Assembly (NCBI GenBank): GCA_964583795.1
Contig: CAZOWX010000003.1
Coordinates: 23,978 to 87,977 of the forward strand
DNA: 64,000 bases
Source: an uncultured Pseudomonadales bacterium
GTDB lineage: Bacteria > Patescibacteriota > Microgenomatia > UBA1400 > PJMF01
Direction: 5' to 3'
The notes under the pieces were generated by a model, which did not search any database, was not told the origin of the DNA, and saw nothing but the letters and a program-made list of their open reading frames with translations. The position numbers and the translations under genes are program-made. Of this stretch, positions 3,386-55,792 are shown piece after piece (positions within the stretch are counted from its first letter, which is position 1; each line of letters begins with the position of its first letter).

Positions 3386-5128
3386 ATGTCTTGGTATCGT
3401 ACCTACCGGCCACAAACAGTCAGCGCACTTCATATTGATAGTGTCCGAGAGAGTTTGCAAAAAATGCTTCAGTCTGGGAACCTCCCTCAGGCGCTCCTAT
3501 TTTCTGGGCCAAAAGGAACAGGAAAAACCTCAAGCGCTCGGATCATTGCCAAAGTACTCAACTGTGAACACAATGCCAAGCACGAGGCTGGCAAACCGTG
3601 GAAAGAACCATGTAATACTTGTGAGTTGTGTGTACTGATTACCAAAGGTTCGGCACTGAATGTCGTGGAGATGGATGGCGCGAGCAATCGGCGCATCGAT
3701 GATATTCGTGCACTCAAAGAGCGTCTGTATCTTCCTCCGTCGCAGGGACAGAAAGTGGTGTACATCATCGATGAAGTGCACATGTTGACCAAAGAAGCCT
3801 TCAATGCGCTTTTGAAAATGTTGGAGGAGCCACCAGAACATGTGGTGTTCATTTTTGCTACGACCGACCCGCAAAAGATTCCAGAAACGGTCATTTCTCG
3901 TGCGACCAGAGTGCAGTTTACCAAAGCATCCGTGTCAGAATTGGCCAAATCACTGCAAGAAATATCAAAAAAAGAAAAAATTGAGGTTGACCAACAAAGC
4001 CTCGAACTTATCGCCCAGAGTGCCGATGGCAGTTTTCGCGACGCTGTGAAGCTATTCGAGCAGTTAGTGAGCAGAGCGAAAGCAGACAAGAGTGTCATAA
4101 ACACGCAATGGGTAGAGAATGTTCTTTCGACTGTTTCGAGCGATGGGGTAGTGAAATTATTGCAAAGCATTTTAGCCAAAGACGAAAAAGCAGTGGTAGC
4201 CTATTTTCAAACCATTCGCTCGCAAAACGTGGAAGCGACAGTGATTCACAAGCAGTTGCTCGCTTTTTTACACACAGAGCTGATCAAAGCGCTCACAAGC
4301 AGCGAGGAACCGTTTACCCGCAAAGAGGTGTTGCTGTATTTGCTCAAACAATTTAGCGGCGTGGATATCCCCCAGTTGCATCCGTTCCCATTGTTACCGC
4401 TAGAGCTATGCGCAATTGAAATGGTGCTCAAAAGCAAAGAAAAAGATCGAACTGGCGGAGCAAATAGCAATAGTGTAAAAAATACAAAACACGAAGAAAA
4501 TGCGAAACTTGATAAAGTTGAAAGTCCCCCTCCTTCGTCCCGCAGTGCGGGAAAATTACAACTTGATCATCAGTCAGGTTTCCATTCAAGTGACTTCGGC
4601 GGGCAAAGTAAGTTGCAAGTTGTAAGTAATAAACAGGATGAAAACAATGATACTGTTTCTGATGCTGTTACGACGTTCGATATTTCTGAAGATTTTGCAG
4701 CTGATGATTCTCTTGTCAGTACTGAGTCTGCTGCGATGAAACCAGAATTCAACGATGCGACGGTAGAAGTTATTGAGTCAACATCAAACCAAGCGGATGG
4801 TTCTTTAGTTGGTCAAAAATGGCAGGAGTTATTGAAAATGATTGGAAAACATAACTTGTCTCTTGAAGCTATTTTACGCAGTGCCCGGTTTGCCAAGGGT
4901 GAACTCGGTCGAGCAACGATCAACGTGTTTTACTCATTTCACAAAGAACAGTTGGAGTTGCAGCGTTACCGAAACATTGTTGAACAAGCCATTTTTGAGT
5001 TACTTGGTGGACGTGTGCAGTTTGAGTATATCCTATCCCAGCCTCAGTCATCACAAGCCTCCGATGATAACGTTCGGGGGAATGTTGATAAAGAGTTTGT
5101 GAGCACGATTGAGGATGCACTGCTTTAG
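3386..5128 (+). CDS. dnaX: DNA polymerase III subunit gamma/tau
   Basis: Walker A GPKGTGKTS, zinc module CNTCELC, DEVHML box. A low-complexity linker carries an in-frame repeat insertion. Confidence 0.9.
   Translation: MSWYRTYRPQTVSALHIDSVRESLQKMLQSGNLPQALLFSGPKGTGKTSSARIIAKVLNCEHNAKHEAGKPWKEPCNTCELCVLITKGSALNVVEMDGASNRRIDDIRALKERLYLPPSQGQKVVYIIDEVHMLTKEAFNALLKMLEEPPEHVVFIFATTDPQKIPETVISRATRVQFTKASVSELAKSLQEISKKEKIEVDQQSLELIAQSADGSFRDAVKLFEQLVSRAKADKSVINTQWVENVLSTVSSDGVVKLLQSILAKDEKAVVAYFQTIRSQNVEATVIHKQLLAFLHTELIKALTSSEEPFTRKEVLLYLLKQFSGVDIPQLHPFPLLPLELCAIEMVLKSKEKDRTGGANSNSVKNTKHEENAKLDKVESPPPSSRSAGKLQLDHQSGFHSSDFGGQSKLQVVSNKQDENNDTVSDAVTTFDISEDFAADDSLVSTESAAMKPEFNDATVEVIESTSNQADGSLVGQKWQELLKMIGKHNLSLEAILRSARFAKGELGRATINVFYSFHKEQLELQRYRNIVEQAIFELLGGRVQFEYILSQPQSSQASDDNVRGNVDKEFVSTIEDALL
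4523..4582 (+). repeat. Intergenic-type repeat (CCCCTCC...TCCCGCAGTGCGGGA...GTCAGGT) inserted in frame within dnaX
   Basis: Same motif architecture as the intergenic copy at 55005-55060 and the ychF insert at 43299-43355. It encodes ...PPPSSRSAGKLQLDHQSG... in the DnaX linker. Confidence 0.55.
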
Positions 5129-5139
5129 ATTGTTGATGG

Positions 5140-5180
5140 TGCCAGTCCTAGACAGGTCCGCCTTGGACGGAGAATGTGGG
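5140..5180 (+). repeat. Double-hairpin repeat, degenerate copy (TGCCAGYCCAAGGCTGG-TCCGCCTTGGGCGGAGAGTGTG family)
   Basis: Immediately 3' of the dnaX stop. Matches the copies at 13446 and 50387. Confidence 0.5.
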
Positions 5181-5242
5181 TGGTGTTTTGTTTATCTGAA
5201 AAAAAACAAATACTGCATCGAAAGTAAGAAATCTTAAATGTT

Positions 5243-6468: not shown

Positions 6469-6663
6469 TTCATTTTGTGCAGTCTTTCTGGTGCTTTTGC
6501 CACATAACAAAATAGAGTTATTGTCCAAGATCCTGCAACAAGTATGAATCTTGTGAATCCTGGCTCCTCATATTCCGCTATGGATTCACGATCTGATTGA
6601 ATTGATTAAAAAGTGTATCAGTTTAGTTCAGTCGAGGATGACGTACTTTTCTCTTCAACCATA

Positions 6664-6712
6664 TAACCACGTAACACCATAACCACATAACCACATAACC
6701 ACATAACAACCC
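6664..6712 (+). repeat. Tandem repeat of AACCACAT-type units
   Basis: Direct reading: cataaccacataaccacataaccacataac. Confidence 0.6.
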
Positions 6713-6903
6713 AGTAACTCTTTTAGATAGGTTTTCTTAGTAACAAAGCAACTAAACAACTAAGCAACAAACCAACCAACCAACCCCCACAGCCCCTAGA
6801 CACCGTCATTTTTCTATAGTACTTTGAGTCATTGCGATGCAACGGTTCAACCAGTCATTGCATTCCCTATATACTATATACTAACCCCTACATACTTATT
6901 CCC

Positions 6904-7848
6904 ATGCGACTCATCCTCACTGGCTCCATCGCCATCGATAGAATTCTAAACTTTAGCGGCAAGTACGCTGATGTTATTGCCCCTGATAAACTGCATGTAT
7001 TATCTCTTTCCGTGTTGGTCGATAACTTAGTTGATACTCGTGGGGGAATTGCCGCCAATATTGCATATGGATTAGCGCTACTGGGGGAAAAACCAGTGTT
7101 ATTGGGCAGTGTCGGTCATGATGCGAAAGGGTATATGAATGATTTGGCAGCGCTTGGGATCGATACTTCACATGTTCATTTTTCAAAGAAACCAACCGCC
7201 AGTTTTACGGTGATGACCGATACCGCTGATTGCCAAGTCGGTGGCTTTTATTCTGGCGCGATGAGTGACTCAAGTAGTTTGACGCTCGACGCTTTTGATC
7301 CGGCACGTGATTTTATAGTCATTTCGCCACATGACCCCAAAGCCATGGCGTTGCAGGTCAAGCAAGCGACTGATCGAGGGTTCCATTACTTTTATGACGT
7401 TGGTCAGCAAGTGAGTAATGTGCCTGATGAAGATGTAGTCAATGGAATTGCTAAAGCATCACTACTCATTGTGAATGATTATGAAATGGGAGTAATTGAA
7501 AAGAAAACGAAATTAACTCAAGCCCAGATTGTGAAAAATGTCCCTGTGGTAGTTATTACCTTAGGAGAAAAAGGATCGTTGATTTTTGATCATGGAAAAA
7601 AGCATGAAGTGAGTGCCGTTCCAGTGAAAAAAGTGGTTGACCCAACCGGTGCAGGCGATGCGTTTCGATCAGGATTTTTATTTGGCTATGTTCGTGATTG
7701 GCCAATTGTACAGTGTGCAAAGCTCGGCTCAATTGTGGCTACATTTGCGATTGCACAGCATGGAACACAAGAGCATCACTTTTCCAAAGCTGATATTGAA
7801 AAGATTGCGAAAAAGCAATATAAATTGGTTCTAGGTTCTAGGTTCTAG
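6904..7848 (+). CDS. PfkB-family carbohydrate/nucleoside kinase (adenosine-kinase-like)
   Basis: Ribokinase-like fold with the GG dipeptide and a C-terminal DPTGAGDAF anion-hole motif. The likely start is MRLILTG at 6904 rather than the upstream ORF start at 6832. The last five codons (LGSRF) are encoded by the (GGTTCTA)n array. Confidence 0.75.
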   Translation: MRLILTGSIAIDRILNFSGKYADVIAPDKLHVLSLSVLVDNLVDTRGGIAANIAYGLALLGEKPVLLGSVGHDAKGYMNDLAALGIDTSHVHFSKKPTASFTVMTDTADCQVGGFYSGAMSDSSSLTLDAFDPARDFIVISPHDPKAMALQVKQATDRGFHYFYDVGQQVSNVPDEDVVNGIAKASLLIVNDYEMGVIEKKTKLTQAQIVKNVPVVVITLGEKGSLIFDHGKKHEVSAVPVKKVVDPTGAGDAFRSGFLFGYVRDWPIVQCAKLGSIVATFAIAQHGTQEHHFSKADIEKIAKKQYKLVLGSRF

Positions 7849-7880
7849 GTTCTAGGTTCTAGGTTCTAGGTTCTAGGTTT
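7827..7880 (+). repeat. (GGTTCTA)n heptamer tandem array, about 7.5 units
   Basis: Direct reading. The same array recurs at 47671 and 57984. Confidence 0.8.
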
Positions 7881-22736: not shown

Positions 22737-23540
22737 ATGAGTAATCAGGTTTCAGGTTCCGGGTTTCAGGTTTCAGGGGATGCAATCCAAGCGCAACCTG
22801 TTGTGAATGGTGATGTAACAGTCAGTAGTCAGTTGTCAGTTGTTAGTGATCCCGCTACCGCTCAAGGTAACGGAGGAGCACAGCAGACGTCAGTCGTCAG
22901 TGGACAAGGGACAATTCAACAACCTAACACCCCAACCACTCTACAATCCATCCCTGATCCAGCTGTGGATGAAGCAGTAGCACAGGCGAAAAAAGTGCAG
23001 GATTTATTTGCGAGAAATGATGCGCTAGCGGCAACTGCGCAAACACCAGTTTCAAGTGTTCCAACATCAGTTTCGCCACTTCCTTCGAATCAAGACAATC
23101 AGATCCTGAAACAAGTTCAGGATGACGGGTCTTTTGCCTCACAATCAATGACAACTGATAACACACAACAATCAGCTAGCGATCAGCCAGCACTTCAGAA
23201 TCCAATAACCAATACCCAACAACCAATACCCAGCTCTGATGATCAAAAAAGCCCGCTTGATATTTTAGAAGAAATCCTGCGCAAAGAAGAAAAAAAACAA
23301 GCTGAAAAAGAAGCGGTTGTATCGCAAGAGGAAACTGAGAATCAAAAGCAACTTGAAGCACAGCAAGAAGCAGAAAATCAGGCATTGATTGAAGAAGCAC
23401 GAAAAAAAATGATTCAAGAAACCGCCACAGAAGAACAGAAACAACGAGACGCCATTCGTCAACAACAAATTGATGCGAATAAAGTACATAATCCGTACGA
23501 GATTCGGCAGTTGGAACATGTGAAGAGGGGGCAGGGGTAG
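22737..23540 (+). CDS. low-complexity Q/S/T-rich protein with a K/E-rich coiled-coil C-terminus
   Basis: The first codons are encoded by TCAGGT-type repeats, so the real start is uncertain. Confidence 0.35.
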   Translation: MSNQVSGSGFQVSGDAIQAQPVVNGDVTVSSQLSVVSDPATAQGNGGAQQTSVVSGQGTIQQPNTPTTLQSIPDPAVDEAVAQAKKVQDLFARNDALAATAQTPVSSVPTSVSPLPSNQDNQILKQVQDDGSFASQSMTTDNTQQSASDQPALQNPITNTQQPIPSSDDQKSPLDILEEILRKEEKKQAEKEAVVSQEETENQKQLEAQQEAENQALIEEARKKMIQETATEEQKQRDAIRQQQIDANKVHNPYEIRQLEHVKRGQG

Positions 23541-27847: not shown

Positions 27848-27900
27848 TCGTCAGAGGTTGGTTGTGTGCTGTCTGAGTAACAAGTTTCTGCCCCAACGCT

Positions 27901-28331
27901 CGTCATCCCGGCGAAGGCCGGGATCCATTTTTTTGTGTGACTCACTGAGTTGTTTTGCTCTTGCAGATGTCATTTTCATGTCACAATTTTGTAGTTTAAT
28001 CGCAATATGGACAAGAAAGGATATGTCTATATCTTGGCGTCAAAACCGTATGGAACCTTGTACATTGGGGTTACTTCGGATTTGATAGGGCGAGTGTGGG
28101 ATCATAAGCACAATATCATAAAGGGGTTTACACAAAAATATAACGTCCATATGCTTGTGTGGTATCAAGAGTCTGAACTAATAACTGATGCGATTTACAA
28201 GGAAAAGCAACTAAAAGAATGGCATAGAAATTGGAAAATACGACTCATTAAAGAAACAAATCCTTGTTGGAAAGATTTGTATGAAAAAATTATTGAATAG
28301 TACGTGGATCCCGGCCTTCGCCGGGATGACG
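27901..28331 (+). mobile_element. Candidate small mobile element: GIY-YIG nuclease gene flanked by perfect 27-bp terminal inverted repeats that are themselves hairpins
   Basis: Left TIR CGTCATCCCGGCGAAGGCCGGGATCCA (27901-27927) is the exact reverse complement of TGGATCCCGGCCTTCGCCGGGATGACG (28305-28331). The TIRs belong to the hairpin repeat family scattered through the window. Confidence 0.55.
28007..28300 (+). CDS. GIY-YIG nuclease-superfamily protein (YhbQ/UPF0213-like)
   Basis: GYVYIL...GTLYIGVTSDLIGRVWDHKHN...KYN...KEKQLKEW matches the standalone GIY-YIG (YhbQ) pattern. Confidence 0.85.
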   Translation: MDKKGYVYILASKPYGTLYIGVTSDLIGRVWDHKHNIIKGFTQKYNVHMLVWYQESELITDAIYKEKQLKEWHRNWKIRLIKETNPCWKDLYEKIIE

Positions 28332-28443
28332 AAGGTCACTGTGTCAAAAGAATTTATAGATCGCAATGTGATTTTCTTGTCCAAAGCGCAATCAAATTTC
28401 TACGCAACTAGTCAACCCCCCAACGAACTCCTATACTGAAACC

Positions 28444-29103
28444 ATGTCGCATTTTTCTCTGAATTTGCTGAAGTTTGCGGTGTTCTTTCTCCTACTCAAT
28501 GGTGGAGGAATGTGGTTTGTGTTGTATCGTGATCACCAGACAATACAGCGGTTGCAACAGCTCGATAATGCTCCTGCAGTCAAAGTAGAGCCAACTCCAA
28601 CGCCGCGTTCATTCCCGAGCATCGAGTCGCGACTCGATGTGCTGGAAAGTTCTCAAGAAGCGATACAGTCAAGAGTGAATGATCTTGAAGATTCGCAATC
28701 GAAAAGCAAATCAACAAAAACATATACTCAAAGCACGAGCTCAAAAAGCCCCAAAGAGTACACCCTGTATCTCGGTGAAGGCTCTACAGTGAGTCGCGAG
28801 TGGACTACGGTGCAGTCAACCACAATCTCAATTGATACCAGTAAGTACAAGGGCATTACTGCAGTGTACTTCGAGTCAGGTTTGTCGATTATTGGCGGAG
28901 AGGCATATGCACAACTGATTGACGCAGAGTCAGGAGCAATACTCACCAGTCGTGCTTTAGTGAGTAACACACCAAATCCGGTTTGGAAATCGATTCAGAT
29001 TAATTTGGAGTCAGGGAATCACATGTATGTGGTGCAGTTACGTTCATCGAGTGGGGAGCTAGCAACGCTCAGTGGGGCGAGGATACGGATTATGGCTGAG
29101 TGA
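28444..29103 (+). CDS. hypothetical membrane-anchored protein
   Basis: 219 aa with an N-terminal TM helix. Confidence 0.5.
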   Translation: MSHFSLNLLKFAVFFLLLNGGGMWFVLYRDHQTIQRLQQLDNAPAVKVEPTPTPRSFPSIESRLDVLESSQEAIQSRVNDLEDSQSKSKSTKTYTQSTSSKSPKEYTLYLGEGSTVSREWTTVQSTTISIDTSKYKGITAVYFESGLSIIGGEAYAQLIDAESGAILTSRALVSNTPNPVWKSIQINLESGNHMYVVQLRSSSGELATLSGARIRIMAE

Positions 29104-29182: not shown

Positions 29183-29316
29183 TAAACACCCTTCATACCC
29201 AGGAGTAATTCTGGGGATCAAAAGTACTTGTATTGTATCAAAAGCGAGAAAAATCGCCACCCTTGACTGAACTGATACACTCTTCAAATCAGCTCAGTCA
29301 GATCGTGAATTCCTGG

Positions 29317-29331
29317 TCCCGCACTGCGGGA
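29317..29331. repeat. 15-bp palindrome TCCCGCACTGCGGGA
   Basis: One of six copies. The others are at 585, 4538, 12664, 29539 and 47881. This copy lies in a ~75-bp unit duplicated at 29490-29560. Confidence 0.6.
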
Positions 29332-29398
29332 TGAGGAGCATGGCGATACGGGATAAGTCTTCAGTAGTCAGAAAACTTTCTTTATCCCAACCCCGTTT

Positions 29399-29434: not shown

Positions 29435-29666
29435 CTCTTCATCGAAGCGGGGAAAAACGATCCTTCTAGATATTGAAAAGGTTTTTCAAAAGTGAGAAAA
29501 ATCGCCACCCTTGACTGAACTGATACACTAATTTCTGGTCCCGCACTGCGGGATGAGGAGCCAGAATTCGCAAGATCAATACTGTTGTTTCAGGATCTGG
29601 CATGGGAAGCCCTTGTCGGAAGCCAAAAAAGAAACCTCTCTGCTTCAGTTCTCAATAAGAGTAGAT

Positions 29667-39436: not shown

Positions 39437-40471
39437 TTAAATGATTGTAACAGTGCCTTTTTCTCCGTCAATTTCCACTTCCTGACCATTTTTCAGGATT
39501 TCTGTGGCGCTGTGGGTGCCAACAACACAAGGAATTTTCATTTCACGCGCGATAATGGCAGCATGACTCAGGATCCCACCTTCGTCAGTAATAATACCTG
39601 AGGCTTTATGACACGCGATGGCAAGTTTGGGTTGGGTGCTTTCGCTGACTAATATGGCACCATGGGGCATTTTGGCCATGCACTCTTCTACATTTTGATT
39701 AGCAAGTGAGACGACATAGACTTTACCGCGAATGATGCCTTTACTGGCACCGAGTCCAGCTAATTGACTTACTATCTTTGAAGAGTTTGGCATGAGTTTC
39801 TGGAAGTTTTTTCGAGCTGTTTCACCATAAACGTACTGAAGTGAGCCGTCTGGATTTTTGGTGATTAGAAAATGGGATTTGCGCTCTACTAGTTGTGCTG
39901 AAGTGATTGGGGCAAGTGATAAGTGCAGGATTTCGTCAAAGTTTAAAAACTGGACATCACTTTTGGTGAGCTGATGTTGTTTGCCAATGAGTGTGGCAAC
40001 TTCATACAAATCTTCTGTTGCCAACACACACGTTTCAATAAATTGCAGGCGAAACTCTCCCACGATTTTGATGATTTTTTCATCTTTCATAGGGTGAAGT
40101 AGCGTCGTGTGAAACTCTTCAGTGGTAAAATACAGTCGGTAACTTTCAGCAAGGACAGTGCTTAGTCTGTCAAATAATGTGGATAATTGCCGCTCATTTT
40201 CATCCACTTTCTTCACTGATGCATGTAATTGTCGACCTTGCCCGGTGAGTTTTTTAGCACTCAAGAAAAGTTCAGCAATTTTTTCTTGATTCCTCAAATG
40301 GTGGAGACCTTTTTTGGCCAAGACTGGTAGCTCTTTTTGGGCGACAAACCCTTTGACTTTATGGTTTGTGTAGTAGACAAAAGATCGTGAACCACCCCAG
40401 TACGGTAGCCAAGTGCTGATCGAAAGGACTTTATCGAGTCCATCGGTGAAGATGTGTTGGTAGGAGGACAT
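39437..40471 (-). CDS. PEP-utilizing enzyme phosphohistidine (swivel) domain protein
   Basis: C-terminal GGILSHAAIIAREMKIPCVVG...EIDGEKGTVTI is the mobile His domain. The N-terminal ~230 aa resemble the central domain of the RPH/PpsA family. Confidence 0.75.
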   Translation of the reverse strand: MSSYQHIFTDGLDKVLSISTWLPYWGGSRSFVYYTNHKVKGFVAQKELPVLAKKGLHHLRNQEKIAELFLSAKKLTGQGRQLHASVKKVDENERQLSTLFDRLSTVLAESYRLYFTTEEFHTTLLHPMKDEKIIKIVGEFRLQFIETCVLATEDLYEVATLIGKQHQLTKSDVQFLNFDEILHLSLAPITSAQLVERKSHFLITKNPDGSLQYVYGETARKNFQKLMPNSSKIVSQLAGLGASKGIIRGKVYVVSLANQNVEECMAKMPHGAILVSESTQPKLAIACHKASGIITDEGGILSHAAIIAREMKIPCVVGTHSATEILKNGQEVEIDGEKGTVTII

Positions 40472-40518
40472 GATTGATAGTATATCGTATGTGGTATGGA
40501 GTATGTAGGGAGGAGAGA

Positions 40519-40578
40519 GTTAATAGTGGATAGTTGAACAGTTAATAGTTAGTTACAAGTTTAGAGTACAAGTTTTAG
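40519..40578 (+). repeat. GTTAATAGTGGAYAGT...TACAAG repeat family copy
   Basis: Upstream of the peroxiredoxin gene. Related to the copies at 15949 and 29120. Confidence 0.45.
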
Positions 40579-40688
40579 TTGGACTACGAATAATAAACTA
40601 TGGATAAGGTGATTGAATTGAGGAAGAGATGACCTGAGATTGATTCTGATAGCTTGTTGTTTATCCTGGTGTTAAAATTGGAATCACT

Positions 40689-42656: not shown

Positions 42657-43787
42657 ATGTCACTTTCTGTTGGTATTGTTGGTCTACCCAATGTTGGCAA
42701 GTCCACACTCTTTAACGCATTATTAAAGCGCCAGGTTGCGCTGGCGGCGAACTACCCGTTTGCCACCATTGATCCAAACACTGGTATTGTGCCGGTGCCA
42801 GATGATCGATTAGCAGTACTTGCCAAGATTGTTCAGACTTCAGTTTTGAAACCCGCAACAGTAGAGTTTGTGGATATTGCAGGTCTTGTCAAAGGGGCAA
42901 GTGAAGGAGCAGGACTGGGTAATCAATTTTTATCTCATATTCGTGAGACTGATTTGATTTGTCATGTCGTGCGAGGTTTTAGTGATAACGATGTCATCCG
43001 CGAGGGAAGTGTTGACCCAAAAACCGACAGAGAGACGATCGAAACTGAGTTATTACTTGCTGACTTATCCACTTTAGAAAAACAAAAAGCACCTAAAAGT
43101 GCAGTGACACCGGCTGAAAAAGAGCGTTGGAATATTATTTCTGAACTAAAAGCTGCCGCTGATACTGGATTGCGAAGTGAGGTGTTTAAGGTGAGTATAA
43201 AAAGTGAAGAACATGCCAAAGTCGCCAAAGAACTATCACTTTTATCAACAAAAGTGATGTTGTATGTGGTGAATGTGGATGAAGGGGAGGTAGGTGAAAG
43301 GTGTTCCCCCTCCGCTGAAAGCTCCGGAGGGACGCAGCAGTTGTCAGGTGTCAGGGAGATTGCCAATGAGTTGGGAGTAACTGAAAACCAAGTTGTAGTG
43401 ATTAGTGCGAAGATTGAGTCAGAGCTGTCTTCACTGTCTGAGGAAGACCAAAAGATGTACTTGAAAGATTTAGGATTAGAACAAAGCGGATTAGAACGAT
43501 TGATTCAGAAAGCGTATCAACTGTTAGGACTGCAAAGTTTCTTGACAGCCGGAGAGCTGGAAGTGCGGGCTTGGACCATCAAACATGGCACCAAAGCTCC
43601 TCAAGCAGCGGCTGTGATTCACACTGATTTTGAAAAACACTTTATCAAAGCCAATGTCGCTTCATACGATGATTTTGTGGAACTCAACGGGTGGAAAGGT
43701 GTCAGAGACGCTGGCAAGATGCGAATGGAAGGAAAAGAGTACGTCATGCAGGAAGGGGACGTGGTGGAGTTTATGATAGGGAAGTAG
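42657..43787 (+). CDS. ychF: Ribosome-binding ATPase YchF
   Basis: GIVGLPNVGKSTLFNAL and ANYPFATIDPN, plus a C-terminal TGS domain. Carries a ~20-aa in-frame insert encoded by a repeat. Start assigned at MSLSVGIVG. Confidence 0.9.
   Translation: MSLSVGIVGLPNVGKSTLFNALLKRQVALAANYPFATIDPNTGIVPVPDDRLAVLAKIVQTSVLKPATVEFVDIAGLVKGASEGAGLGNQFLSHIRETDLICHVVRGFSDNDVIREGSVDPKTDRETIETELLLADLSTLEKQKAPKSAVTPAEKERWNIISELKAAADTGLRSEVFKVSIKSEEHAKVAKELSLLSTKVMLYVVNVDEGEVGERCSPSAESSGGTQQLSGVREIANELGVTENQVVVISAKIESELSSLSEEDQKMYLKDLGLEQSGLERLIQKAYQLLGLQSFLTAGELEVRAWTIKHGTKAPQAAAVIHTDFEKHFIKANVASYDDFVELNGWKGVRDAGKMRMEGKEYVMQEGDVVEFMIGK
43299..43355 (+). repeat. Intergenic-type repeat inserted in frame in ychF (GTTCCCCCTCCGCTGAAAGCTCCGGAGGG...GTCAGGTGTCAGGG)
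   Basis: Matches the intergenic copy at 55005-55060 and the dnaX insert. Encodes ...GERCSPSAESSGGTQQLSGV... Confidence 0.55.
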
Positions 43788-43885: not shown

Positions 43886-44155
43886 TTAGTATACTTGGTT
43901 ATGGGAACCTACGTCATAAAAACGGATGGTGTCATGCTCAATTCGATATATTACCCTGATGTCTCCCGTAACTGAAAACGAACGAAATGTTTTGAGTGAA
44001 CCAGTGAGTGGGTGATCTCTCAGTAGAGGATTAGGGTTATGTGGATTTTTCAAAAACGCTTGCAGCCTTTGTTCAAATTTTGCTTTCAAGTTCTTATAAG
44101 GGAAAACTCTTTGTTCTAAATGCTTCTGGAAATTTTTCTGATATTTAATCGTCAT
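43886..44155 (-). CDS. Type II toxin, RelE/YafQ family mRNA interferase
   Basis: ...RDHPLTGSLKTFRSFSVTGDIRVIYRIEHDTIRFYDVGSHNQVY matches the YafQ/RelE C-terminal fold motif. Confidence 0.75.
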   Translation of the reverse strand: MTIKYQKNFQKHLEQRVFPYKNLKAKFEQRLQAFLKNPHNPNPLLRDHPLTGSLKTFRSFSVTGDIRVIYRIEHDTIRFYDVGSHNQVY

Positions 44156-44429
44156 GAAGCCCTAACTGCTCAAAAAATTCTTGGGCAGAAGAAGCTGTGA
44201 AGACATTTTTATTATTATCAAAATCTTTATCCATCGCATTATATCTACGATCATTTTTTTCTGACAACTTGATCGTTTTTGACCAACCGATGGAAATGCG
44301 CTTGCTGGAGAGTTGAGTCAAAAAAACACGGACCGCTTCCTGAAGAGAAGAGAATCCCTGAGCCATAGCTGCCTGGGTCGCGGCTTGCTTTAAGTCACTA
44401 GTAATGGGTACCTGGAGTGTTGTTTTCAT
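44145..44429 (-). CDS. Antitoxin (DinJ/RelB-like) upstream of and overlapping the toxin gene
   Basis: 94 aa with a ribbon-helix-helix-like N-terminus. Overlaps the toxin gene by 11 nt. Confidence 0.55.
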   Translation of the reverse strand: MKTTLQVPITSDLKQAATQAAMAQGFSSLQEAVRVFLTQLSSKRISIGWSKTIKLSEKNDRRYNAMDKDFDNNKNVFTASSAQEFFEQLGLHDD

Positions 44430-45464: not shown

Positions 45465-45776
45465 ATGTCAGGAAAACTCAAATACCAAAAAATCATCAAA
45501 GTTGGCAACAGTTTAGCCGTGACGCTGGACCGTGACTTTGTGACGCAAACTGGTGTGAAGCATGGCGATGAAGTAGCCGTGAACTATCAGGCTGACCAGA
45601 AGGTGGTCAGTTATGCTCCAGTAGAGCCGTCTGGTGCAATGGAAGTAGCTGAGTCGATGGAGAAGTACAACGCGAAGGCGAAAGTGGCTGCGGTAGTGAC
45701 GCCTGAGCTGGAAGAGTGGACAGAGAACTTTATCGAGGAAAATAAGCAAGCACTCAAAAAGTTGGCAAACCTATGA
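45465..45776 (+). CDS. AbrB/MazE-family antitoxin
   Basis: KVGNSLAVTLDRDFV swapped-hairpin motif. Overlaps the Doc gene by 4 nt. Confidence 0.65.
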   Translation: MSGKLKYQKIIKVGNSLAVTLDRDFVTQTGVKHGDEVAVNYQADQKVVSYAPVEPSGAMEVAESMEKYNAKAKVAAVVTPELEEWTENFIEENKQALKKLANL

Positions 45777-46171
45777 CGAATTTTCAAGCGCTTACCATTG
45801 AAGTTGTTCTTTTTATCCATGAGCATATTATTGCTAAGGCTGGAGGAAAACAAGGAATCAGAGATTTTGCCTTGCTTCATAGTGCTCTTGAACGATGCAA
45901 AGTCACTTTCGGTGGAGAGGATTTGTACCCCACACTACTTCAGAAAACTGCGGCGTTGTGGCACTCGATGACGATGAACCACCCTTTTTTGGATGGAAAC
46001 AAGCGGACGGCTTTTGCAACAGTTTCACGGTTTTTATATCTCAATGGTTATCAGATTACTGCCTCTCAAGACGAAATAGTGCGGATTTGTATCAGCGTCG
46101 ACAATGACGGGCTGAAGTTGAGTGAAATTGTGAGTTGGTTGGAAAAGAACACTAAAGACTATAGACTATAG
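45773..46171 (+). CDS. Fic/Doc-family toxin (Doc)
   Basis: HPFLDGNKRT matches the Doc signature Hx(F)x(D/N)GNKR. Confidence 0.85.
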   Translation: MTNFQALTIEVVLFIHEHIIAKAGGKQGIRDFALLHSALERCKVTFGGEDLYPTLLQKTAALWHSMTMNHPFLDGNKRTAFATVSRFLYLNGYQITASQDEIVRICISVDNDGLKLSEIVSWLEKNTKDYRL

Positions 46172-47663: not shown

Positions 47664-47670
47664 TAGATTA

Positions 47671-47724
47671 GGTTCTAGGTTCTAGGTTCTAGGTTCTAGG
47701 TTCTAGGTTCTAGGTTCTAGGTTT
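47671..47724 (+). repeat. (GGTTCTA)n heptamer tandem array, about 7.5 units, directly after the rpsR stop
   Basis: Direct reading. Followed by GTTTTGGGCGGAGAGTGTAGAGTG, which resembles the tail of the double-hairpin repeat. Confidence 0.8.
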
Positions 47725-47880
47725 TGGGCGGAGAGTGTAGAGTGCGAAATGTGGATTATAGATTGTGGATGATGGATTTTTTGTACTTGGCTTGAGAGAA
47801 TAGACTTGTAGCTTGTCATTTTGACAGGCTCAATGTAAAAGCTTGCTTGCCCGCCGTAGCTTTACTGTGTCCTCTCGTAG

Positions 47881-47895
47881 TCCCGCAGTGCGGGA
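47881..47895. repeat. 15-bp palindrome TCCCGCAGTGCGGGA
   Basis: Direct reading. Confidence 0.6.
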
Positions 47896-47966
47896 CGAAG
47901 TGGGAGCGGAGGAGGGTAGCTTGTATCTCGTCAACTTCCCCTTATTATCAAAAAGAAGAGAAGCTT

Positions 47967-50276: not shown

Positions 50277-50386
50277 GGCGGTTAGTATATAGTATTTTGT
50301 ATATGGTATGTAGAGGGAAGGGATTGGGGAGTGGGGATTATAGATTATGGATATATGGATGGTGGATTGTGGAATGTGCCAGTCCA

Positions 50387-50425
50387 AGGCTGGTCCGCCT
50401 TGGGCGGAGAGTGTGGATTTAGCGA
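50387..50425 (+). repeat. Double-hairpin repeat (TGCCAGTCCAAGGCTGGTCCGCCTTGGGCGGAGAGTGTG)
   Basis: Identical to the copy at 13446. Confidence 0.6.
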
Positions 50426-50474
50426 CTAGGGATTAGTGCTTGACTTGATGAGTGTGGGTTGTTGCAATTGATTC

Positions 50475-50541
50475 TTGCGGCTTGCGGCTTGCGGCTTGCG
50501 GCTTGCGGCTTGCGGCTTGCGGCTTGCGGCTTGCGGCTTGT
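50475..50541 (+). repeat. (GCGGCTT)n tandem array, about 9 units
   Basis: Direct reading, immediately upstream of mreB. Confidence 0.8.
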
Positions 50542-54998: not shown

Positions 54999-55167
54999 GA
55001 TATTTTAGGTGTCAGGTGTCCCTCCTTCGCTGAAGCTGCGGCGGGCGCGGCAGGTGTCAGCAGTTAGCGACTAGCGACTAGGGGTTAGTGGAACAGTGGA
55101 CAGTTAATAGTAGACAGTGATCAGTAGTCAGGATTCAGGGTTTAGGCCTTAGGGAATAGAAATACTT

Positions 55168-55228: not shown

Positions 55229-55256
55229 ACTTACTCTAAAGCAAGAAAACTAAAAA

Positions 55257-55295
55257 GTCGTCATCCCGAATTCGATTCGGGATCTAAAGTCAGAG
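55257..55295 (+). repeat. Hairpin MITE-like repeat, core copy (GTCGTCATCCCGAATTCGATTCGGGATCTAAAGTCAGAG)
   Basis: Near-identical to 13524 and 29399. Confidence 0.65.
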
Positions 55296-55435
55296 TTCCC
55301 GATCGAAAGTGCAATACCCATTGTTATCCGGCGAACTCGTGCCCTAAGGGTAAAACAGGATCTATCTCATCGAACAGAAAATGCAACTCAAAAGCAAAAA
55401 AAAAGATCTGTTTCAATTCTCAATAAAAGTACCTA

Positions 55436-55498
55436 TCTGACTTTAGATCCTGAATCCGTCTTGCTCATATCTTCGCTAGACTGTTCAGGATGACGACT
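55436..55498 (-). repeat. Hairpin MITE-like repeat, inverted orientation (TCTGACTTTAGATCCTGAATCCGTC...CTGTTCAGGATGACGAC)
   Basis: Inverted relative to 55257. Related to 6408 and 24577. Confidence 0.55.
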
Positions 55499-55792
55499 TT
55501 TTATTTTCTCTGCTTTCGAGTTAAATTTTCTTACTTTAACGGTTTAGATGTGGTCATTTTTTCAACCTTGATACTTACAATTTAAAAACATGCAATTTTT
55601 ACTGACCAGTAATATCAATTGAAGTGGTAACGTTTGTGTCACTTGCAACCTGCAACTTGCATCTTGTAACCACTACAGAGCTTGCAACTTGTAGCTATTA
55701 AAATCCCTAATCTTGGAATTTTTGACTTGGAATTTGGAATTTGCTTTGAGCAATGTCACTTTCTTGTCAGAATTGATGTGTATGATCAACTC

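Follow-up and report, generated by a model that had tools for sequence, protein, structure and literature searches.

How does a short hairpin repeat of the kind found between genes come to lie, in frame, inside conserved housekeeping genes? The question is raised by a 64-kb stretch of a metagenome-assembled contig from one Patescibacteria (Microgenomatia-like) genome, which is the whole of the DNA that was analysed and is referred to below as the window. An earlier note on this DNA had described one repeat, with a head, a hairpin and a GTCAGGT tail, at three sites, of which one is intergenic and the other two are within the genes dnaX and ychF. The answer that we regard as probable is that these segments, and others like them in topA and fpg, are copies or fragments of very small (~30-45 nt) G+C-rich hairpin repeats, a non-autonomous selfish DNA of the REP (repetitive extragenic palindrome), SDR (small dispersed repeat) or MITE (miniature inverted-repeat transposable element) kind, which have multiplied in this Microgenomatia lineage and whose genic survivors are tolerated. 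The two genes had been introduced as essential, a term that needs qualifying for ychF, since YchF is universally conserved and is not essential in E. coli.

The sequences on which the proposal was built are present within 1-4 nt of the positions first given for them: the dnaX repeat GTCCCCCTCC... begins at 4524, the ychF repeat GTTCCCCC begins at 43303, and the intergenic copy is at 55005-55060. The open reading frames (ORFs) of dnaX (3386-5128) and ychF (42657-43787) are both intact and encode exactly the peptides that had been quoted, which confirms that the genic copies are in frame. In the dnaX linker, which is variable, a head GTCCCCCTCCTTCG is fused to the perfect palindrome TCCCGCAGTGCGGGA (4538-4552), the two together spanning 4524-4552 of the + strand and encoding SPPPSSRSAG, and the DNA hairpin formed by this repeat has a folding energy of -6.4 kcal/mol (z -2.9). 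The 15-nt palindrome, TCCCGCAsTGCGGGA, is present in 6 copies in the window versus 0.00 expected, with none seen in 100 shuffles; five of the six are intergenic (585-599, 12664-12678, 29317-29331, 29539-29553, and within the composite copy described below) and one is that in dnaX. The head, CCCTCCTYCG, has 4 copies versus 0.09 expected, one of them in dnaX and the other three intergenic. On these counts, the dnaX copy has strong statistical support.

For comparison, three loci of one related genome (SRR33452760; hereafter the sister) are syntenic with the window and amount to 60 kb in total. The DnaX linker is longer by a net 13 aa (39 nt) than that of the sister orthologue, which is the closest at 64% identity; a search of the protein collection returned no nearer DnaX orthologue. 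As scored, the excess is DHQSGFHSSDFGG, at 4565-4603 on the + strand, which contains the heptamer-like GTCAGGT, although its gap placement is uncertain, with alignments setting the gap either beside the palindrome or over it.

In the case of ychF, the insertion amounts to 42 nt, or 14 aa (RCSPSAESSGGTQQ, 43299-43340, + strand), and contains the perfect 7-bp hairpin CCCTCCG-N10-CGGAGGG at 43308-43331. The 14 extra residues are found in the window protein and in a 91% identical YchF (P0002) from a Logan assembly of another sample, with all 42 nt identical in the two carriers, and they are absent from the sister YchF (85-88% identical) and from 12 other orthologues. The insertion is therefore lineage-specific, as had been suspected. 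The gain of about 20 aa that had been attributed to each gene is an overestimate, as the net gain is 13-14 aa. The additional residues of YchF directly follow the G4 motif NVDE and fall in a gap relative to solved YchF structures, and residues 212-229, between the G4 strand and the next helix, are coil with pLDDT <50 in a moderate-quality AlphaFold model (mean pLDDT 70). The idea that the added residues lie in surface or linker regions thus agrees with the linker position in DnaX and with the surface loop in YchF, a loop for which the model gives no placement.

The GTCAGGT tail does not survive as part of the element. In ychF, the tail TTGTCAGGTGTCAGG (43341-43355, + strand) encodes L-SGVR and has a 15-nt match to an intergenic heptamer array at 12353. 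The sequence TCAGGTGTCAGGGAG of the same gene encodes SGVRE, a peptide that is also present, with similar codons, in a distant orthologue (L104), while L105 has SGLQQ at this place. Judged from these alignments, the ychF tail is probably ancestral coding sequence or a heptamer-like flank or target, and is outside the element. Comparison of the window ychF (42657-43787) with that of L001 (2044-3174), a contig of the closest relative and of the independent assembly in which the insert is identical, gives 83.6% DNA identity overall, in a mosaic where some blocks are near-identical and others are 25-35% divergent. One of several near-identical blocks is the longest identical run, of 74 nt, which spans the insert. 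The mosaic may have arisen by recombination between lineages, or the assembly may mix strains. A metagenome scan for the exact ychF hairpin CCCTCCGCTGAAAGCTCCGGAGGG gave 0 matches.

The intergenic site shows an element that has been cleanly added to existing sequence. Here a 31-nt unit, element X (CCCTCCTTCGCTGAAGCTGCGGCGGGCGCGG, 55020-55050, + strand), is located within a degenerate heptamer array of AGGTGTC / CAGTxxx units (55006-55150, + strand). Of all excisions tried, deleting exactly these 31 nt best restores the heptamer phase (TAGGTGT CAGGTGT CAGGTGT CAGCAGT TAGCGAC ...), and the GTCAGGT at 55005-55060 therefore belongs to the host array and not to the element. Element X has no inverted termini, and there is no target duplication past a 1-nt ambiguity. 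Its best non-self alignment in the whole window is with the ychF insert, at a score of 26, where three shuffled windows reach 23 at most. The head of X is common to the dnaX and ychF copies; their hairpins differ. The view of one shared element at three sites can therefore be kept only for the head, as the dnaX palindrome is of a separate family and the ychF hairpin CCCTCCG...CGGAGGG is different again.

Elements are also nested in one another. A composite intergenic copy (47849-47920, - strand), downstream of a Wzy-like gene, consists of an X-type element whose loop holds a 42-nt unit, and this unit bears TCCCGCAsTGCGGGA. The composite is found as well in L001 (1-69), 42 nt upstream of ahpC at the contig end, which falls within the palindrome; in the window, the orthologous spacer (40470-40688) is without the composite and holds heptamer arrays. 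When dnaX is set against the composite, CCCTCCTTCG-TCCCGCAGTGCGGGA is opposite CCCTCCTTCGCTCCCACTTCG-TCCCGCA..., and the dnaX copy resembles the 5' part of the composite minus 11 nt between two CTTCG repeats. A degenerate X-like copy, GTCAGGGATCCCTCCTTCGCGCTTGAGGCTACGAAAG, is intergenic at 14521-14567 on the - strand. An antisense 14/15 match to X in the tail of topA (60294-60308) was dropped as probably due to chance.

Two further genes carry hairpins of this kind. In topA (58092-60347), a copy of a double-hairpin repeat, TCAGCCAAAGGCTGA + TCCGCCCCGGGCGGA, is located at 58725-58760 on the + strand and encodes SQPKADPPRAEK. The reference copy of this repeat is intergenic (13441-13488, + strand), as are further copies at 50372-50419 and 5135-5182. 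The topA copy matches the intergenic consensus at 25/29 core positions, with both stems intact and one outer pair changed on both sides, and its DNA fold has an energy of -11.6 kcal/mol (z -4.0). It is in a loop that varies in length among orthologues, where the net difference from the sister is only +3 aa (9 nt). A second TopA insertion relative to the sister, the 9 aa KGSTSKTIP (58407-58433), has neither a hairpin nor a repeat match. In fpg (mutM; 61537-62433), a 48-nt in-frame insertion of 16 aa, VDPNKKDRIRNPANGG (62206-62253, - strand), is a lineage-specific gain relative to the sister and carries the hairpin TCCCGCCATTGGCGGGA (62205-62221). Alignments to solved structures (MutM in the case of fpg) break at both the topA and the fpg site.

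The same genes are recovered by two surveys of the window. Among orthologue pairs that are at least 60% identical, insertions of at least 9 aa relative to the sister are found in dnaX, ychF, topA (the hairpin-free second insertion) and fpg. A blind scan for perfect G+C-rich hairpins with a stem of at least 7 bp gives 15 in the window, 10 of them in the 23% of the window that is outside coding sequence (CDS) and 5 in CDS; four of these 5 coincide exactly with the sites in dnaX, ychF, topA and fpg, where all four stems are perfect over 7-8 bp. The net gains are 39 nt in dnaX, 42 in ychF, 9 in topA and 48 in fpg, with all four ORFs intact. The three datable gains (39, 42 and 48 nt) are each divisible by three and free of stops, as would be expected of inserts that are translated and not removed.

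Pairwise BLAST gives 85% identity to the sister for YchF, 78% for TopA and 64% for DnaX. In the 60 kb of the sister, no palindromes, heads or heptamer arrays are found, which argues that the repeat load of the window is recent and lineage-specific. The coding share differs as well, at 94% in a 22-kb sister stretch versus 86% in the syntenic part of the window.

The hairpin of dnaX is not confined to this lineage. A scan for YCRTCCCGCASTGCGGGACY that covered one genome per species, the window's own genome not being among the matches, gave 99 stretches (100 copies), versus a rough chance estimate of ~17. Many of these stretches are multi-copy within single metagenome-assembled genomes (MAGs) of Verrucomicrobiota, Acidobacteriota, Lentisphaeria, Bacteroidota and several Patescibacteria (L005-L103), and the exact 24-nt sequence of dnaX, CCTCCTTCGTCCCGCAsTGCGGGA, occurs in 7 copies in 6 loci of other genomes. 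A GTAG immediately 5' of the hairpin is seen in 16 copies in other genomes and in 1/6 of those in the window (CGTAG at 47876). In Acidobacteriota, GTCCCGCAsTGCGGGAC is the 3' stem-loop of the proposed RNA motif Acido-Lenti-1, whose loci score 37-49 bits and occur up to four times per 8 kb, a frequency that suggests a dispersed DNA repeat and not a single RNA gene. Scanning viral contigs for the palindrome gave 0 matches, and there is thus no support for carriage by phage.

These observations can be brought together as follows. The spacers would be the normal home of the elements, which sit inside heptamer arrays and nest in one another, and an occasional copy would land in, or be copied into, a gene. 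Selection would then keep only those copies that are in frame, free of stops and in surface loops or linkers that tolerate changes in length. The survivors would be translated as short loops rich in Ser, Pro, Gly and Ala, probably disordered and with little or no effect on the protein, so that the genic copies would be near-neutral. For the way in which the elements move, the candidates are a REP/RAYT-like transposition of single-stranded hairpins and a switch of template at hairpins.

Several points weigh against this account. The support from X-type similarity is modest, with the X scores just above those of shuffled windows, and the intergenic X copy folds no better than shuffles, so that the hairpin that had been taken as common to all three sites holds for dnaX and ychF only. 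G+C-rich hairpins in CDS exceed those in codon-shuffled CDS by a factor of only about two (5 versus 2.3, with 5/100 shuffles reaching 5); because this excess is weak, the case is built on the identity of the genic copies to spacer families and on the comparisons with orthologues. The dnaX linker is longer than that of the closest orthologue, as had been anticipated, but the exact point of insertion cannot be fixed because the linker does not align with that orthologue, whose identity is only 64%. The repeat-bearing stretch of topA is nearly of orthologue length (+3 aa), and simple insertion is therefore insufficient to account for it. A Pfam scan of 60 window ORFs, all large ORFs included, found no Y1_Tnp, DDE or other transposase. 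Finally, translation of the genic copies is putative, and the view taken here is that of 64 kb of a genome.

The topA result in particular invites a different explanation, in which short hairpin tracts from intergenic donors replace resident loops at microhomologies, for example heptamer-like ones, through a switch of template or through short-patch gene conversion. Such patch copying would account for a full double hairpin in topA that replaces unrelated sister sequence with so small a net gain, and for the palindrome of dnaX, which aligns ungapped opposite orthologue residues. It is also in keeping with the ychF site, which is flanked by heptamer-like sequence as the intergenic copies are, and with the mosaic of that gene, in which a 74-nt identical run lies over the insert when the gene is 84% identical overall. 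The clear net gains in ychF (42 nt) and fpg (48 nt), however, are not those of a replacement, intergenic X is a clean 31-nt addition, and the wide variation in topA loop length among orthologues makes insertion followed by deletion equally possible there. We therefore think patch copying unlikely.

Could the genic hairpins instead be selected cis-acting signals, such as ribosome-pausing or processing RNA structures, or binding sites for proteins or of the DNA-uptake type, and not tolerated parasites? In favour of this, all four genic copies keep perfect 7-8 bp stems, the outer pair of the topA copy being changed on both sides with the stem kept. Likewise, two lineages that are otherwise 16% different show no differences in the ychF insert and its flanks, and the same hairpin is conserved in many phyla, where it is part of Acido-Lenti-1. 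Yet the sister has none of these hairpins in the same genes, the hairpin families differ from gene to gene at unrelated positions, and most copies are intergenic and embedded in repeat arrays; the identity run in ychF, moreover, is one of several in a mosaic gene. Selected signals seem to us a quite improbable explanation. Chance resemblance, or an artefact of assembly or binning, can be set aside as hardly credible despite the marginal X-type similarity, the weak CDS hairpin enrichment and the metagenomic source of the contig, given 6 palindromes observed versus 0 expected, a ychF insert that is identical in an independent Logan assembly from another sample, intact reading frames, and flanks that are colinear with orthologues.

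The setting of the preferred explanation, that of small selfish hairpins multiplied in the spacers and tolerated in genes, is an otherwise ordinary stretch of genome. The window has a G+C content of 42% and a steadily positive GC skew. The best matches of YchF, DnaX and TopA are Patescibacteria proteins, and a look-up of the window's own YchF returned no record; some relatives of YchF are named Cerribacteria or Woesebacteria, and one is on a contig labelled Microgenomatia UBA1400. The genes are ordinary housekeeping genes (DnaX, YbaB, RecR, CysS, a DEAD-box helicase, AhpC, YchF and S6/SSB/S18, with MreBC, PBP, DprA, TopA, Fpg and others), and the coding share is 81.5% when small ORFs made of repeats are left out. 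Between ychF and rpsF are a YafQ/ParE-type toxin gene with a small ORF upstream (43886-44429) and a Fic/DOC gene with a small partner ORF (45465-46171); these genes are common to L001, and the sister locus L002 is without them at that position. At gathering scores, Rfam gives no matches in the window, and at E values up to 5 the sole notable matches are tmRNA-like fragments, with no repeat family among them. These pieces, ~71 nt each, are at 13647-13718 (+) and 14119-14189 (-), in inverted orientation ~400 nt apart; they resemble the joined 5' and 3' ends of tmRNA (acceptor stem and T arm), and their scores, 31.8 and 24.8 bits, do not reach the Rfam gathering score. ARAGORN finds neither a tRNA nor a tmRNA in the window.

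The spacers are long and contain three kinds of repeat: tandem heptamer or octamer arrays, GTCATCC hairpins, and the small palindrome families. Tandem arrays are present in most spacers and often begin at or just past a stop codon. They include GGTTCTA heptamer arrays, which have TAG on both strands (7827-7879, 47669-47723 and 57983-58023), a CTTGCGG heptamer array (50474-50540) and octamer arrays (6657-6784). Heptamer arrays are known from heterocystous cyanobacteria and Beggiatoaceae (PMC4679880); literature searches on repeats or heptamer arrays in Patescibacteria, or the candidate phyla radiation (CPR), turned up nothing specific. The GTCATCC superfamily consists of hairpins of the form (AAAGTC)GTCATCC-stem-loop-stem-GGATCT(AAAGTCAGAG) with variable and nested loops, at ~25 sites in the window (for example 1979, 2126, 13525, 29399, 29701, 55260 and 55494, with a 260-nt unit at 55246-55510), and some pairs of these hairpins form MITE-like units with GTCGTCATCC termini. 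In other Patescibacteria MAGs, the palindrome is surrounded by similar ...GGGATGACA contexts.

Three further ORFs contain or adjoin repeats or palindromes. An ORF of 97 aa with a GIY-YIG domain (28007-28300) is located between two copies of a GTCATCC-type hairpin, 28 nt each, perfect and in inverted orientation (27900-27927 and 28305-28332). The whole, 27900-28332, may be mobile as a small unit, or two repeats may have inserted on either side of a gene. The ORF at 22737-23540 (267 aa, no Pfam family) contains heptamer arrays (22745-22847 and 23202-23232) and an antisense GTCATCC hairpin (23096-23126), all in its first 500 nt; either its start is mis-called or repeats are translated there too, and it was rejected as a genic case because its 5' third may be noncoding. 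The palindrome CATCGAGTCGCGACTCGATG in the ORF at 28444-29103 was likewise rejected as a genic case, being without intergenic relatives.

Patescibacteria are regarded as streamlined organisms with small genomes. That nearly one-fifth of the window is spacer packed with heptamer arrays and nested hairpins, which the sister is without, makes this DNA a clear case, in nature, of selfish DNA that has recently expanded in such a genome. Where conserved proteins tolerate extra residues is revealed by the in-frame copies in DnaX, YchF, TopA and Fpg, which also provide a second independent system, besides Rickettsia, in which to consider such insertions as neutral passengers or as raw material for new loops. 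The occurrence of a 17-24 nt hairpin across phyla suggests that an Rfam "sRNA" (small RNA) motif may be a dispersed DNA repeat. A bolder extension, to which we attach little likelihood, is that the palindrome unit, with its 24-nt core CCTCCTTCGTCCCGCAsTGCGGGA, would represent an unrecognised class of ultra-small mobile hairpins across Verrucomicrobiota, Acidobacteriota, Lentisphaerota and several Patescibacteria, which would insert into heptamer arrays, each other and coding loops with neither inverted termini nor target duplication, and would be driven by an enzyme not yet tied to transposition, such as the hairpin-bracketed GIY-YIG protein.

Among known systems, the SDRs of Nostoc and its relatives, reportedly described by Elhai et al. 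in 2008 as units of 21-27 nt that make no target duplication, may offer a likeness. They would share with the present elements a size of tens of nt, hairpin potential, the absence of inverted termini and target duplication, and nesting in repeats that include heptamer arrays. The likeness is to that description; the differences are in the host, which is cyanobacterial for SDRs, in the length, here 31-42 nt, and in the in-frame genic copies, which were reportedly not a focus of the SDR work.

REPs and REPINs are short G+C-rich palindromes that are moved by RAYT (Y1) transposases (PMC3116915). The window elements resemble them as short (20-40 nt) G+C-rich imperfect palindromes that are multi-copy and mainly extragenic, with 5/6 palindromes intergenic. 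The GTAG that stands beside a REP hairpin is present in one window copy and absent from the other five. REPs are seldom reported within coding sequence. No RAYT gene is present among the 60 window ORFs scanned, and unlike the inverted doublets of REPINs, the sole close pair (29308-29339 and 29530-29561) is direct, with the two copies 222 nt apart.

Acido-Lenti-1 (RF01687; Weinberg et al. 2010, PMC2864571) was proposed as a noncoding RNA of Acidobacteria and Lentisphaerae and not as a mobile repeat. Its 3' hairpin contains the same palindrome as dnaX, and its multi-copy two-hairpin unit resembles the double-hairpin family of the window, but the window is without its first hairpin and linker, and its covariance model gives no window match at E values up to 5.

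Bacterial MITEs that fuse in frame with genes, namely the QMITE of Coxiella, ERIC, BOX and Correia (PMC5896051, PMC10969869), are like the present elements in being non-autonomous repeats by which ORFs are occasionally extended or interrupted in frame. They have terminal inverted repeats, usually target-site duplications, and lengths of 50-500 bp, whereas the 31-nt X has neither of the first two features; separate GTCATCC...GGATGAC elements in the window do look MITE-like.

The parallel drawn by the earlier note is one of mode of persistence. The Rickettsia palindromic elements (RPEs) are, in summaries of Ogata et al. (2000, 2002), palindromic repeats found between genes and in frame within them (PMC10969869; PMC3184786), and the in-frame persistence of palindromic repeats in genes is known both from these and from other MITEs (PMC10969869; PMC3184786). 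In the window, too, palindromes are dispersed between genes and in frame in unrelated housekeeping genes of a small-genome bacterium, where the added peptide is compatible with the fold, and the analogy is a fair functional one that extends to topA and fpg. It does not extend to family membership. RPEs are ~100-150 bp with a long palindromic structure, and the lengths here are 31 nt (X), 42 (ychF) and 48 (fpg). RPE families have a conserved peptide that is read in one frame, whereas the shared CCCCCTCC starts at codon position 1 in dnaX and 2 in ychF; because the two copies are read in different frames, there is no conserved encoded peptide. The host is a member of the Patescibacteria and not Rickettsia, and the present elements are found nested within heptamer arrays and within one another. 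By length, frame and host, rather than by comparison with RPE sequences, the elements are outside the RPE family, and the mode of persistence alone is alike. They are a new example of a known phenomenon, in a new phylum and at a smaller scale.

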